From NCBI RefSeq assembly GCF_048403405.1, contig NZ_CP183129.1: a stretch of DNA of 64,000 bases; one strand, 5' to 3'. Under the pieces are notes generated by a model. It did not search any database. It was not told the DNA's origin and saw only the letters and a list, made by a program, of their open reading frames with translations. Origin of the DNA: Escherichia coli. GTDB taxonomy: Bacteria > Pseudomonadota > Gammaproteobacteria > Enterobacterales > Enterobacteriaceae. A program made the position numbers and the translations under genes. Within the stretch, counting starts at the first letter, position 1. Every line of letters begins with the position of its first letter. This document shows positions 37,992 through 58,226 of the stretch, in pieces.

Positions 37992-38641
37992 GCCGCCATC
38001 TCCCTGACCAGTTTTTCCGCCTGCTGGCGAACCTGCGCCAGAAACGCCTCACCACATGCCTCAAGTTCATCGCGCCCGATGTAGCTGATTGCCGGTCCCT
38101 TCCAGGTCTTGTCGAAAACAGCAATAGCACCAGCGAAGAAAGCGCCTGTCGGCACCTGCTTCTCATCTTTCGGGATAAACCAGGCAGGCAGTTCAAAACC
38201 AATACGCCCGCGAATAAAAGCAATATGATCTGCATCTTCCGGCCACCACACTTCGCTGGTGGCAGCTTTGATCAGGAAAACATAGCGCCCGCCTTTATCA
38301 CGCATGGCACTGGCATGTTTCATGATGTAACGCATGCCGGTGATGTATTGCCCCTCATGCTGACTGGCGCGGCTGTATGGGGGATTACCAAAGGCAGCAC
38401 CTTTAAGCTCCGCAAGACGTTCTGACCAGTCATGCGCCAGCGCGTTGTCTTCCGCCGTGTAATACGCGGTACATTTGGCGTTATCACCGTCAGTAAACAG
38501 ATCCAGGACAAACGGGCCAAACAGGGTGTTAATTCCCCAGAAAATGTTATCCGGCGTGCGCCACTGATCGCCCACTTCCTTCAGTTCATGGGCTGGTTTG
38601 TTCCGCAGCTCCACCAGCTCCTGGCAATATTTATTACTCAT
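37988..38641 (-). CDS. Phage N6-adenine DNA methyltransferase (Dam-like, PF05869 type)
   Basis: It has an NPPY catalytic motif (FGNPPYS). The start at ATG 38641 overlaps the upstream stop (TAATG). Confidence 0.8.
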   Translation of the reverse strand: MSNKYCQELVELRNKPAHELKEVGDQWRTPDNIFWGINTLFGPFVLDLFTDGDNAKCTAYYTAEDNALAHDWSERLAELKGAAFGNPPYSRASQHEGQYITGMRYIMKHASAMRDKGGRYVFLIKAATSEVWWPEDADHIAFIRGRIGFELPAWFIPKDEKQVPTGAFFAGAIAVFDKTWKGPAISYIGRDELEACGEAFLAQVRQQAEKLVREMAA

Positions 38642-39129
38642 TAAGCCCCCACGTAATTCCCTGACAGATACCACTCATCACCCGATACAGCGCGCTTGCT
38701 GCTTTTCCGTAAGCACCGCTCACGACGTGCCAGAAAATTGTTTCGTTCTGGCTGGGAGTGGCTTTCACGGAATGCCGCCATCCACACGGTTGCAGCACGA
38801 CGGTATAAGCCCCTGGACTCCAGTTCTTCAGCCTGGCGGGTCAGGCACAAAATCACCCGGGGATCGTTAGTGCCGACATAGAAATTGCGCACAGGTCTGG
38901 TTTCACGAACTGGTTGTGGTTCCGGCTCCTGCGCTCTCTCAGTCAGGCGCGGGAAATGTCTGCGTGTATATCCTTCACAACGGTGAGCCACACGCCCACT
39001 CTGACGTAACTTGCTTGCAGACTGCAGAACGCGCTGCCGTGAGTAACCTGCAAAAGCATCCGCAATGTCTCCGGAAGTACACCCCGGATGGGCTTCAATG
39101 AATTTCTGAACTTCATTCAAAAGACTCAT
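38641..39129 (-). CDS. Putative regulator with a PerC/Pch-like C-terminal domain
   Basis: 162 aa. ...AEELESRGLYRRAATVWMAAF...FLARRERCLRK resembles the PerC-family motif (LE.KGL(W/Y)RRAA.RW...RRR..C). Confidence 0.55.
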   Translation of the reverse strand: MSLLNEVQKFIEAHPGCTSGDIADAFAGYSRQRVLQSASKLRQSGRVAHRCEGYTRRHFPRLTERAQEPEPQPVRETRPVRNFYVGTNDPRVILCLTRQAEELESRGLYRRAATVWMAAFRESHSQPERNNFLARRERCLRKSSKRAVSGDEWYLSGNYVGA

Positions 39130-39131
39130 GA

Positions 39132-39950
39132 TTATCCCCTGAATCCTGCCGGGATCTGGCTGTAGTCCACGTTGTCGTAACTGGCTTTGAAGTACGGGTC
39201 CTCGCGTCTGGCTGCAGATACCGCAGGAACTTCCCAGGATTCTTCGAAATGACGATCCGGACCAAAGAACGTGACAGCCTGTTTCACAAATTGTGTGCCG
39301 CTGTTACCCATCGCAGATACCCAGCCCGCGTAGCGTTTCACACCTTCCAGCATGGTTTCGGGTTTTACCCCCTCATTCAAACGGGCTTTCCAGGCTTTGA
39401 AGGCTGCAGATTTTGAATTGCCACCAGCACGTTTGGGGTATGCCAGCCATGCCTGCTCAAACTCCGGAGAGTATTCCGGTCGGTTTGAACGAACTCGCAC
39501 AGACTCATCAGCAGATGCACCAACAGCTATTGGTTCATTGACTGGTTCTTTGACTGGTTCAAAAGAGTGACTGGTTCTGGGTGAATCTCCTGCACCACCC
39601 CCTGGTGCAACTCCTGCACTACCTGGTGAATTTGCTGCACCAGATAGTGAATTATTTGCACTACCCCCTAGTGAATCTCCTGCACCATCAAGATGAAGGA
39701 GATAGATATTACTTGAGTTACCTTTTTCACCTTTCCGGGTGACTTTTTTTACCAGCCCGGAATCACAAAGGGCCGCAATATGATTCATCACAGAACGTTT
39801 GCTAATCTCGCACTGGTCAGCAATATGCTGGTAGCTGGGCCAGCACTCACCCTGATCGCTGGCATTATCAGCCAGCTTGATCAGAACCAGTTTTCGCAAT
39901 GGATTACCCACTCGAATTTTCATCGCTTTAACCATCAGCTCCATACTCAT
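39132..39950 (-). CDS. Replication initiator (O-like; N-terminal wHTH, internal iterons, DnaT-like C-terminal tail)
   Basis: The ATG at 39950 follows GGAGG and overlaps the upstream stop (ATGA). The wHTH is ...LVLIKLADNASDQGECWPSYQHIADQCEISKRSVMNHIAAL.... The protein ends ...DYSQIPAGFRG. Confidence 0.7.
   Translation of the reverse strand: MSMELMVKAMKIRVGNPLRKLVLIKLADNASDQGECWPSYQHIADQCEISKRSVMNHIAALCDSGLVKKVTRKGEKGNSSNIYLLHLDGAGDSLGGSANNSLSGAANSPGSAGVAPGGGAGDSPRTSHSFEPVKEPVNEPIAVGASADESVRVRSNRPEYSPEFEQAWLAYPKRAGGNSKSAAFKAWKARLNEGVKPETMLEGVKRYAGWVSAMGNSGTQFVKQAVTFFGPDRHFEESWEVPAVSAARREDPYFKASYDNVDYSQIPAGFRG
39580..39687. repeat. Five ~18-bp iterons (candidate ori) inside the O-like gene
   Basis: (G/A)GTG(A/C)A(A/T)NT(C/T/A)(C/G/T)(T/C)TGCAC(C/T)A occurs at 39580, 39604, 39625, 39646 and 39670, spaced 21-24 bp. 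Three GACTGGTTC repeats precede it at 39535-39578. Confidence 0.65.
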
Positions 39951-40183
39951 GCTGCACCTCCGAGATGCTTCATGTTTTTTCCGGAGCAAAAGGCTATAAG
40001 CGGCATACTGATGCGGTAATTACGGCCCAGCGGTTCACAAATCACCTTCTGACATTCACGGTCAACCAGGCTAACACGTAGAACATGCCCTGCAGGCGTG
40101 GTGTACCACTGCCCAACTGTAGGAATTGATGTTTTTTTACGCTGAAGCAAACGGCAAATATTGAGGATCAACGGATTAAGCAT
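39947..40183 (-). CDS. Hypothetical protein (78 aa)
   Basis: Both ends overlap neighbouring genes (8 nt upstream, ATGA downstream). I recognise no family. Confidence 0.5.
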   Translation of the reverse strand: MLNPLILNICRLLQRKKTSIPTVGQWYTTPAGHVLRVSLVDRECQKVICEPLGRNYRISMPLIAFCSGKNMKHLGGAA

Positions 40184-56946: not shown

Positions 56947-57486
56947 ATGTCTTCCAGAGTTTTGACCCCGGACGTCGTTGGTATTGACGCCCTGGTACAC
57001 GATCACCAAACCGTTCTGGCAAAAGCTGAAGGCGGTGTGGTTGCCGTATTTGCTAACAATGCCCCGGCGTTTTATGCCGTCACGCCTGCACGCCTGGCTG
57101 AACTGCTAGCGCTGGAAGAAAAGCTGGCGCGTCCGGGAAGCGATGTCGCTCTGGACGATCAACTCTATCAGGAACCGCAAGTTGCTCCCGTTGCTGTACC
57201 CATGGGGAAATTCGCCATGTATCCGGACTGGCAACCCGATGCCGACTTTATCCGCCTGGCGGCGCTATGGGGCGTGGCACTAAGAGAGCCGGTGACCACC
57301 GAAGAACTGGCCTCATTCATTGCCTACTGGCAGGCGGAAGGTAAAGTCTTTCACCATGTGCAGTGGCAACAAAAACTGGCGCGCAGCCTGCAAATCGGTC
57401 GTGCCAGCAACGGCGGACTGCCGAAACGAGATGTGAATACGGTCAGTGAACCTGACAGCCAAATTCCACCAGGATTCAGAGGGTAA
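56947..57486 (+). CDS. dnaT: Primosomal protein DnaT
   Basis: [30 protein letters not shown]..., 179 aa. It ends ...[13 protein letters not shown], 2 nt before dnaC. Confidence 0.92.
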
Positions 57487-57488
57487 CG

Positions 57489-58226
57489 ATGAAAAACGTT
57501 GGCGACCTGATGCAACGCCTGCAAAAAATGATGCCTGCCCATATCAAACCTGCGTTCAAAACGGGTGAAGAACTACTGGCCTGGCAGAAAGAACAAGGGG
57601 CGATCCGCTCCGCCGCTCTCGAACGTGAAAATCGGGCGATGAAAATGCAGCGCACCTTTAACCGCTCCGGTATTCGTCCACTGCATCAGAACTGCTCCTT
57701 TGAGAACTATCGCGTTGAGTGTGAAGGGCAGATGAATGCGTTAAGCAAAGCGCGCCAGTATGTCGAAGAGTTTGACGGCAACATCGCCAGCTTCATCTTT
57801 TCTGGTAAGCCAGGAACCGGCAAAAACCATCTGGCGGCGGCAATCTGCAACGAGCTGCTGCTACGCGGTAAATCCGTATTGATTATCACCGTGGCCGATA
57901 TTATGTCGGCGATGAAAGATACCTTCAGGAATAGCGGTACCAGCGAAGAACAACTGCTTAACGATCTGAGCAATGTTGATCTGCTGGTGATCGATGAGAT
58001 CGGCGTGCAAACCGAATCGAAATACGAAAAAGTGATCATCAACCAGATCGTCGATCGCCGCTCTTCTTCCAAACGCCCAACCGGGATGCTGACCAACAGT
58101 AATATGGAAGAGATGACCAAGTTGCTGGGCGAACGCGTGATGGACCGTATGCGCCTGGGTAACAGTTTGTGGGTGATCTTCAACTGGGATAGCTACCGTA
58201 GCCGGGTAACGGGTAAAGAGTATTAA
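57489..58226 (+). CDS. dnaC: Replicative helicase loader DnaC
   Basis: 245 aa with a Walker A motif (GKPGTGKNHL). Confidence 0.93.
   Translation: MKNVGDLMQRLQKMMPAHIKPAFKTGEELLAWQKEQGAIRSAALERENRAMKMQRTFNRSGIRPLHQNCSFENYRVECEGQMNALSKARQYVEEFDGNIASFIFSGKPGTGKNHLAAAICNELLLRGKSVLIITVADIMSAMKDTFRNSGTSEEQLLNDLSNVDLLVIDEIGVQTESKYEKVIINQIVDRRSSSKRPTGMLTNSNMEEMTKLLGERVMDRMRLGNSLWVIFNWDSYRSRVTGKEY

Follow-up and report, generated by a model that had tools for sequence, protein, structure and literature searches.

The 64,000-nucleotide stretch of the Escherichia coli contig NZ_CP183129.1 analysed here, hereafter called the window, contains a prophage whose replication initiator ends in the same short motif, IPxGFRG, as the primosomal protein DnaT of its host. 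The motif is conserved in DnaT, is exchanged between phage initiators as a C-terminal module, and is linked exclusively to replication modules without a phage helicase. We assign a probability of about 55% to the reading that this tail is a linear motif that would couple the origin-bound initiator to host DnaB and a DnaC-family helicase loader.

Similarity between the initiator and DnaT

The initiator terminates in ...NVDYSQIPAGFRG (longer stretches, ...YDNVDYSQIPAGFRG and ...KASYDNVDYSQIPAGFRG, each directly before the stop codon in the translation of the 39132..39989 frame). The window has 387 stop-to-stop frames of 60 or more amino acids; in an all-against-all comparison of their last nine residues, the initiator and DnaT matched at 8 of 9 positions and were the sole pair exceeding 5/9 among 74,691 pairs; they are also the only two of the 387 frames that end in GF[RK]G. 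The common C-terminus noted in the original prediction, which was made from the letters of the window, is thereby confirmed. BLASTP between the two proteins aligned nothing but these last nine residues (8/9 identical, E=0.01), which could be taken as a sign of coincidence or of a neutral, hitch-hiking remnant. This explanation is extremely improbable in view of the uniqueness of the match within the window, the finding that all 240 viral pattern matches listed (see below) are in-frame C-termini, and the conservation of the motif on many unrelated protein bodies in perfect association with the type of replication module.

At the family level, the similarity is longer than the nonapeptide. With the tail included, a profile of the phage middle domain matched the DnaT profile with 95% probability (E=3e-8), but the same comparison without the tails gave 1% probability (E=0.054), and the tails alone matched DnaT in hhalign with E=3.5e-11 over 19 columns (RDxNxxSxPDxxIPxGFRG). 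Since the score collapses without the tails and persists for the tails alone, the profile similarity to DnaT comes from the tail. The DnaT tail (57424-57483) lies beyond the Pfam DnaT domain (PF17948), which covers positions 93-158 of the 183-amino acid (aa) open reading frame (ORF), i.e. about 89-154 in standard DnaT numbering; because the domain ends at approximately residue 154, the shared tail is outside it. The three-helix domain of DnaT that binds single-stranded DNA (ssDNA) was not detected in the initiator, and no similarity to the N-terminal oligomerization and PriB-linker region of DnaT was found in it by BLASTP or phmmer. The resemblance beyond the terminal nonapeptide thus holds for approximately 19 residues, but does not reach into the folded DnaT domain, and the similarity is that of a tail module only.

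The initiator possesses the conserved C-terminal IPxGF(R/K) motif of the DnaT family. In Enterobacteriaceae, the DnaT tail reads [ILV]S[EQ]PDxxIPxGFRG, and an alignment of 15 orthologs sharing 30-80% identity has no more than 22 invariant columns over the full protein, three of which are P174, G176, and F177. The motif is also kept in DnaT proteins of approximately 180 aa that are 31-50% identical overall, many of which are rich in lysine and asparagine. Judged from this sequence record, the tail clearly appears to be functional in DnaT. For residues 160-179, the only function found in the literature was a modest effect on ssDNA binding. The allele dnaT822 was considered as a tail mutation and rejected, as it is a deletion of codons 87-92. 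Likewise, a 299-aa database protein that fuses DnaT(1-173) in frame to DnaC (P0116) was set aside because an internal deletion removes the PPGFRG motif and the first dnaC codons; it is probably an assembly or sequencing artefact.

Exchange of the tail among phage initiators

Homologs with the N-terminal and middle domains of the window initiator (67-89% identity) diverge only past ...FFGPDRHFEESWxxPA, at about residue 242. Four classes of tails are found beyond this point: class A, the GFRG tail of the window (...REDPYFKASYDNVDYSQIPAGFRG); class B, ending in KLTF or NLNF (...GLGAMSDKFGKSSDKLTF or ...MSDDFGESGENLNF); class C, ending in NFNW (...LPISGFSEQDYGSTNFNW); and class D, ending in NFLK (...DYRDQDYGDANPNFLK). 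Locus L010 (class A) and loci L006 and L007 (class C) have the same upstream genes and different downstream genes, which places the recombination joint inside the initiator gene, approximately 30 codons before the stop. The last ~30 codons of phage initiators thus appear from these comparisons to be a swappable unit.

The 24-aa class A tail was found on at least four N-terminal and at least three middle domains, and GFRG tails overall on at least five different N-terminal and at least four different middle domains. GFRG tails occur in two types, the DY type of the window and the PD type, whose C-terminal pattern, N-x-[IV]-S-x-P-D-x-x-I-P-x-G-F-R-G, is a closer copy of the DnaT tail than that of the window. 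The N-termini of PD-type proteins carry HTH_36, DUF1376 (YdaU), or Phage_rep_O or have no Pfam match, and their middle domains include DnaT, Phg_2220_C, the window type, and others. In viral contigs, the GFRG pattern matches were in-frame C-termini in 120 and 120 cases, i.e. 240/240 among the matches listed. When 1.84 billion representative proteins were searched with DnaT, many proteins of 269-538 aa were found that end in a DnaT C-terminal domain (CTD) followed by the tail, several of them with MDYxIPEGFRG, the DY variant of the window.

An initial homolog search with a C-terminal fragment returned mostly partial proteins, which were informative for tails and not for gene context. A 122-aa 'replication protein' (P0004) is a C-terminal fragment with the tail of the window and represents a prophage relic, suspected by us to be YfdO of the K-12 prophage CPS-53. 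Rac-type YdaU (DUF1376) proteins (H52, the ydaU of Rac-SA53; L022) end in ...VSLPDSAIPPGFRG and are followed by a DnaC-like gene, which we take to correspond to ydaV.

Tail type and downstream helicase and loader genes

Four tail patterns (GFRG of the PD type, GFRG of the DY type, class B, and class C) were scanned in viral contigs, and ORFs located within 3.5 kb downstream were assigned to classes by phmmer comparison with a small set of reference proteins, with Pfam spot checks of the resulting classes on representatives. For the main count, a protein had to be 200 aa or longer and to have 2.5 kb or more of sequence downstream. Among the loci listed, the PD type was followed by a DnaC-clade loader in 45 cases and by neither loader nor helicase in 33, whereas all 65 loci of the DY type had nothing of this kind downstream (no DnaC-clade loader in any); neither type was accompanied by its own helicase. 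Conversely, a phage helicase followed class B tails in 83/83 loci and class C tails in 73/73. When pooled, GFRG tails thus preceded a phage helicase in 0/143 loci (45 with a DnaC-clade loader and 98 with nothing), compared with 156/156 for class B and C tails. A looser count, in which proteins of any length were accepted with at least 1.5 kb (GFRG) or 2.5 kb (classes B and C) of downstream sequence, gave 59 DnaC-clade loaders, 40 loci with nothing, and no helicase for 99 PD-type loci; no loader or helicase for 93 DY-type loci; a loader of the other type in all 96 and a DnaB-like helicase in 95 of the 96 class B loci; and a DnaB-like helicase in all 77 class C loci, 15 of which have the helicase directly next to the initiator without a loader.

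After removal of the last 35 aa and clustering of the initiator bodies at 70% identity, 28 dereplicated GFRG and 15 class B or C combinations of body and tail showed zero exceptions, and the body cluster of the window protein itself comprises 20 GFRG members with nothing downstream versus 52 class B or C members with their own helicase. Tail sub-variants also co-segregate with loader sub-types and not with the initiator body. In assembly contexts, classes B, C, and D directly precede an IstB_IS21-type loader (292-297 aa) and a DnaB_C helicase, and class A is followed by PerC, Dam, and subsequent genes. Within one initiator cluster with an identical tail, the DnaC-like gene is present in 14/21 and absent in 7/21 members; in sampled loader-less loci of several clusters, a DUF977 gene directly follows the initiator.

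The loaders themselves form two groups. Those following GFRG tails are about 248 aa long and 47-48% identical to host DnaC and 54% to each other, while those following class B, C, and D tails constitute a separate clade (28-34% identical to DnaC and 50-59% among themselves) with a Cys-rich, DnaI-like N-terminal extension, nearly always with a DnaB-like helicase alongside. Sister initiators (L002-L009, L011-L013, L019; L344-L583) have acidic tails with an aromatic end (...KLTF, ...NLNF, and ...NFNW), with a DnaB-like helicase, a Cys-rich DnaI-like loader, or both downstream. Because the helicase directly follows the initiator without a loader in the 15 loci mentioned above, the ...NFNW tail is suggested to dock on the phage helicase.

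Phages carrying the initiator and its tail

In tblastn searches against phages, the initiator is 98-99% identical to the replication proteins of SfV (orf39; 98.6%), mEp460, 2H10, and Ayreon. Copies with 98-99% identity are also present in many Stx2c- and Stx2a-converting phages. One record names the product 'primosomal protein I'. The coliphage mEp460 was isolated as a viable phage and has the module of the window, with no helicase or loader annotated in its 44.5 kb. The O protein of LLS ends in ...PMKFGPVDTKIPEGFRG at its stop codon (...VDTKIPEGFRG) and is followed by a methyltransferase gene, with no PerC gene. LLS encodes only an O homolog, as do 34/314 enterobacterial lambdoid phages, and the replication of such O-only phages was described as 'not yet understood' (PMC12315714, Genome Research 2025). 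In the epsilon15-like phage SPN1S, which is viable like mEp460 and LLS, an initiator with a DnaT CTD and the tail is followed by DUF1064 without a loader, and in an Aeromonas phage a DnaT-CTD-type initiator precedes a DnaC-like loader. The replication modules described in the Eru paper on Stx phages are of other types, all with helicases.

The DY-type tail is followed by a PerC-like ORF in 104/118 viral loci, mostly overlapping the stop codon and across initiator bodies. It might therefore be asked whether the partner of this tail is the translationally coupled PerC-like protein, acting as a non-ATPase adaptor or loader similar to lambda P. We regard this as highly unlikely: the matches found for the protein are PerC/Pch transcriptional activators, a GFRG tail occurs in LLS without a PerC gene, and neither DnaT nor PD-type tails have a PerC neighbour, so that PerC is unable to explain the IPxGFRG core that all of them share.

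In the phage collection, all matches that include the tail came from phages of Escherichia, Shigella, Salmonella, and Klebsiella, whereas phages of Burkholderia, Vibrio, Ralstonia, and Oceanospirillum matched in the middle domain only. The two of the latter that were examined have other tails, i.e. ...DDYDDFFDHRRGFDR in Burkholderia phage DC1 and ...QEERGGSFIDLDNGDWSSK in Vibrio phage D77. An acidic ending with an EE(R/W)G core (e.g. ...QEERGGSFIDLDNGDW) closes the D77 initiator (L585), and a similar ending is found on several long DnaT-domain proteins (P0289, P0294, P0295, P0306, and P0317). In hosts that load their helicase by another system, this ending may take the place of the GFRG tail.

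Possible partners of the tail

The initiator can be viewed as a modular replisome organizer, in which the winged helix would bind iterons within its own gene and the tail core IPxGFRG, a short linear motif shared with the end of host DnaT, would specify the helicase-loading machinery used. The GFRG tail would couple the initiator to host DnaB and a DnaC-family loader, the loader being phage-encoded where one is present in cis and host DnaC where the phage has none, as in the prophage of the window. Bound to its iterons, the initiator would in this way deliver DnaB6-DnaC6 to the open origin, and a phage whose tail recruits host DnaB/DnaC would need no loader or helicase gene. The tail of DnaT may do the same at replication restart sites, with a direct contact to DnaC and/or DnaB in both cases.

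Several observations favour DnaC as the contact. The gene order of dnaT-dnaC (dnaC directly follows dnaT in 79/80 species in a survey of Enterobacteriaceae) matches that of the phage organizer-loader cassettes, and tail and loader sub-types co-segregate. In addition, host DnaC has a GQxxALSxA patch around A84 that recurs in the phage loaders encoded after GFRG tails and is lacking in the other loader clade; the dnaC1331 mutation (A84Y), which lies at this site, blocks the PriA/PriB/DnaT pathway in vitro (PMC11087952). The patch is a possible docking site for the tail. In favour of DnaB, the motif core is invariant although the phage loaders are only 47-48% identical to DnaC, host DnaB being constant, and the class C tail tracks a helicase even where no loader is present.

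In the literature, the link of DnaT to DnaB/DnaC is undefined (PMC11087952, PMC13377028, PMC5778457): no interaction of DnaC with PriA, PriB, or DnaT has been shown (PMC11087952), and for a DnaT-DnaC interaction it was 'tempting to speculate' (PMC5778457). An unlikely, but more substantial, alternative to the coupling proposed here is that the tail recruits a component of the preprimosome, namely PriA, PriB, or host DnaT itself (through imitation of the contact between DnaT subunits in a filament), and that DnaB/DnaC arrive via the restart pathway. The motif is DnaT's own, DnaT residues 154-179 aid cooperative ssDNA binding (PMC4132743), and many phage initiators with a full DnaT CTD and tail could form mixed filaments with DnaT. 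Moreover, PriA and DnaT are generally known to be used by phage Mu and ColE1-type plasmids, a use to which PMC3325207 refers. Arguing against such a route are the occurrence of the tail on bodies without a DnaT domain and the fact that the DnaT N-terminal domain alone is retained in no phage. It is also less economical, because DnaC-clade loaders, which an indirect PriA route would not need, are frequent in cis (45/78 PD-type loci). In the cryo-electron microscopy (cryo-EM) structure of the preprimosome, the modelled parts of DnaT appear to be the CTD, the N-terminal domain, and the linker, and the tail is probably not resolved, since by our own arithmetic the residue totals in Table 2 of that paper leave little room for residues 160-179; the tail is unmentioned in the text.

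The proposal that the initiator mimics DnaT for helicase loading is therefore supported in part. The tail is a genuine DnaT-type motif, with P-x-G-F invariant to 30% identity, and it tracks reliance on host helicase loading, the sister initiators with other tails always preceding a helicase. The proposed entry through the PriA/PriB/DnaT primosome is not borne out: no result points to PriA or PriB, and DnaC or DnaB is the likelier partner, because the GFRG tail often precedes a DnaC-clade loader as dnaT precedes dnaC.

The tail might also have no protein partner in loading and instead help the initiator to bind ssDNA or to self-assemble once the origin is open, or serve as a stability or degradation signal. 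Without residues 154-179, DnaT binds dT30 with a roughly 2-3-fold higher Kd and a lower Hill coefficient (PMC4132743), and the motif contains an aromatic residue and an arginine. We consider this improbable, since peptide-docking motifs typically show such strict conservation, here of P-x-G-F, in a disordered terminus, and since neither the exchange of the tail together with the helicase/loader module nor the restriction of tail-including matches to phages of enteric hosts would be explained.

Other points weigh against the proposed coupling to DnaB and a DnaC-family loader. The binding partner is deduced from gene association alone, the functional conclusions as a whole draw on such association and on conservation, and the data appear to fit DnaC and DnaB equally as the contact. 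From the cryo-EM preprimosome, Ducos et al. (2026) propose that the N-terminal domain of DnaT recruits DnaB/DnaC and do not discuss the tail. The mild weakening of cooperative ssDNA binding upon removal of DnaT 154-179 (Liu et al. 2014) points to DNA or filament formation as other possible targets of the tail. As the tail codons lie at the 3' end of the gene and adjoin the downstream module, physical linkage could explain part of the co-segregation. The counts refer to loci listed (up to 120 per scan) and are dominated by related enterobacterial prophages, and the downstream classes rest on phmmer comparison with few references over 3.5 kb only. Finally, the PerC-like gene that almost always follows the tail type of the window (104/118) could be the real partner.

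Domain organization and putative origin

The coordinates of the features are summarized in Table 1. AlphaFold2 modelling of the initiator with a 38-sequence alignment predicted four parts, namely a winged helix-turn-helix, a disordered linker, a helical middle domain, and the tail (residues 245-272), which is unstructured and of low confidence (pLDDT 50-58). The winged helix is presumed to be the origin-binding domain. The initiator was assigned to phrog_270 ('replication initiation protein', E=1.5e-88) and matches Pfam HTH_36 (E=2.9e-11). Its body consists of a possibly DnaD-like winged helix, an iteron-bearing linker, and a helical domain, and is not a DnaT domain.

Table 1. Features of the initiator gene, its putative origin, and neighbouring and host genes in the window.
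Feature	Position	Strand	Description
Replication initiator gene	39132..39950	minus	272 aa, WP_000061487.1; PGAP call; ORF frame 39132..39989
Winged helix-turn-helix, N-terminal	39687..39950	minus	aa 1-88; pLDDT about 90
Linker, disordered		minus	aa 92-157 of the initiator; AlphaFold2 pLDDT 27-38
Helical middle domain	39225..39473	minus	aa 160-242 (confident for 160-240, pLDDT about 95); possibly DnaD-C-like, no DnaT domain
C-terminal tail module, REDPYFKASYDNVDYSQIPAGFRG	39135..39206	minus	aa 249-272; core SQIPAGFRG at 39135-39161
Five iterons, GTGAATnTCCTGCACyAC	39581..39690		~18 nt; spacing 24, 21, 21, and 24 nt; repeat search
12-mer direct repeats, TGACTGGTTCT	39531..39578		adjoin the iterons; lower-GC stretch, GC 0.43-0.45
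PerC-like gene	38641..39135	minus	start overlaps initiator stop; Pfam PerC E=1.9e-9; PHROG 'transcriptional activator'
Conserved ORF of 74-78 aa	39947..40183	minus	overlaps initiator start; phrog_1153, no assigned function
Host dnaT	56947..57486	plus	alternative start 56935; 183-aa ORF as scanned
Host dnaC	57489..58226	plus	directly downstream of dnaT; candidate partner of the tail

The iterons lie mostly within the part of the gene coding for the linker, and the upstream end of the array (39678-39690) overlaps the end of the winged-helix coding region. Initiator homologs of 268-302 aa vary in the number of repeat units. The iterons and the 12-mer repeats (39531-39690) probably constitute the phage origin, with binding of the initiator to the iterons being predicted. 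An iteron array inside the initiator gene is a feature of the lambda O family, but no Pfam match to Phage_rep_O was obtained for the initiator, although other GFRG-tailed proteins do carry this domain. As its putative origin is inside its own gene in a lambda-like layout, the initiator is regarded as a functional analogue of lambda O outside the Phage_rep_O family; the description 'O-like' therefore applies to its function and layout and not to its family.

The initiator is followed by genes for the PerC-like protein, a Dam methylase, a protein with a LexA DNA-binding domain, RusA, and a KilA-N protein, and is preceded by those for the 78-aa ORF, an Ash-family protein, and a CP76/cII-like protein. 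None of these flanking genes is P-, DnaC-, or DnaB-like according to Pfam, and across the entire prophage, between the integrase by yjjG and the tail genes, RefSeq annotates no helicase, loader, or primase, in agreement with the absence of such a gene after the initiator that had been remarked on initially. The phrog_1153 ORF sits upstream of initiators with GFRG, ...KLTF, and ...NFNW tails and may be part of the replication module. The prophage (~16000-47700) is integrated beside yjjG, with its integrase at ~47.6 kb, and lies ~9 kb from the dnaT-dnaC operon; this closeness looks like a coincidence of the integration site and not a functional link.

Relationship to known systems

The initiator and E. 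coli DnaT (primosomal protein i) share a C-terminal motif, S/x-x-P/D-D/Y-x-x-I-P-x-G-F-R-G, outside the folded domain, and both act upstream of DnaB/DnaC loading. Unlike DnaT, the phage protein has no oligomerization domain or detectable three-helix ssDNA-binding domain, and is predicted to bind an origin and not a PriA/PriB-marked fork. The resemblance to the lambda O/P system includes iterons in the initiator gene beside a lower-GC stretch, the position in the early-right operon after cII, and a C-terminal part that would couple the initiator to the helicase-loading step. However, the phage of the window lacks Phage_rep_O (PF04492), Phg_2220_C (PF09524), and a P gene, and its coupling appears to proceed via a short disordered tail to host factors and not via a folded domain to P.

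The Rac-type YdaU-YdaV system and the 'primosomal protein' initiators of the epsilon15/phiV10 type have the same tail (PD), with or without a DnaT domain, and use host DnaB, but most have a DnaC-clade loader in cis or a true DnaT domain, whereas the window has neither and carries the DY variant. In DopC/DopE (Brezellec et al. 2017, PMC5509034), an O-like protein likewise combines an HTH_36 N-terminus with a C-terminal element of DnaT; DopC differs in carrying a DnaT domain and pairing with a P-like protein. Firmicute DnaD and the replisome organizers of the phage SPP1 G39P type are also among the closest known systems.

The C-terminal tip of SSB (DDDIPF) and the acidic tail of T7 gp2.5 are disordered acidic peptides with proline or aromatic residues that dock replication partners. 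They serve here as a working analogy for the GFRG tail, which differs in sequence and whose aromatic residue is not terminal; the alternative tails ending in F or W are closer in likeness to SSB-type tips than the GFRG tails are.

The initiator family itself and fusions of O-like N-termini to the DnaT CTD were previously known (DopC, PMC5509034; 'primosomal protein I' annotations). PMC5509034 noted the initiator-DnaT fusion at the domain level, and neither the terminal motif as a separable module nor the link to loaders. In the searchable literature, we found no description of the IPxGFRG end as a module that can be separated and exchanged, of its perfect anticorrelation with phage helicases, or of its use as an explanation of initiator-only phages or as the DnaT-DnaB/DnaC link.

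Implications

A broader interpretation, which we put forward tentatively and at somewhat less than even odds, is that the PxGF of DnaT is the missing link between the preprimosome and DnaB/DnaC, that dnaT-dnaC is a domesticated phage cassette, and that initiator-only phages (mEp460, SfV, LLS, many Stx2c phages, and epsilon15-like phages) present the same motif at their origins, where host DnaC would load host DnaB. The results bear on two questions. One is how a helicase is loaded in those lambdoid phages of enterobacteria, roughly 10%, that have an O-type initiator alone (PMC12315714); Stx2c-converting and serotype-converting (SfV) phages are among the phages concerned. The other is how DnaB/DnaC take over from DnaT when replication restarts (PMC11087952, PMC13377028). 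A motif of ~10 residues stands out from the comparisons, and tail swaps have already been made for it in nature. A peptide-sized interface at the essential helicase-loading step could also be of interest as a lead for inhibitors.

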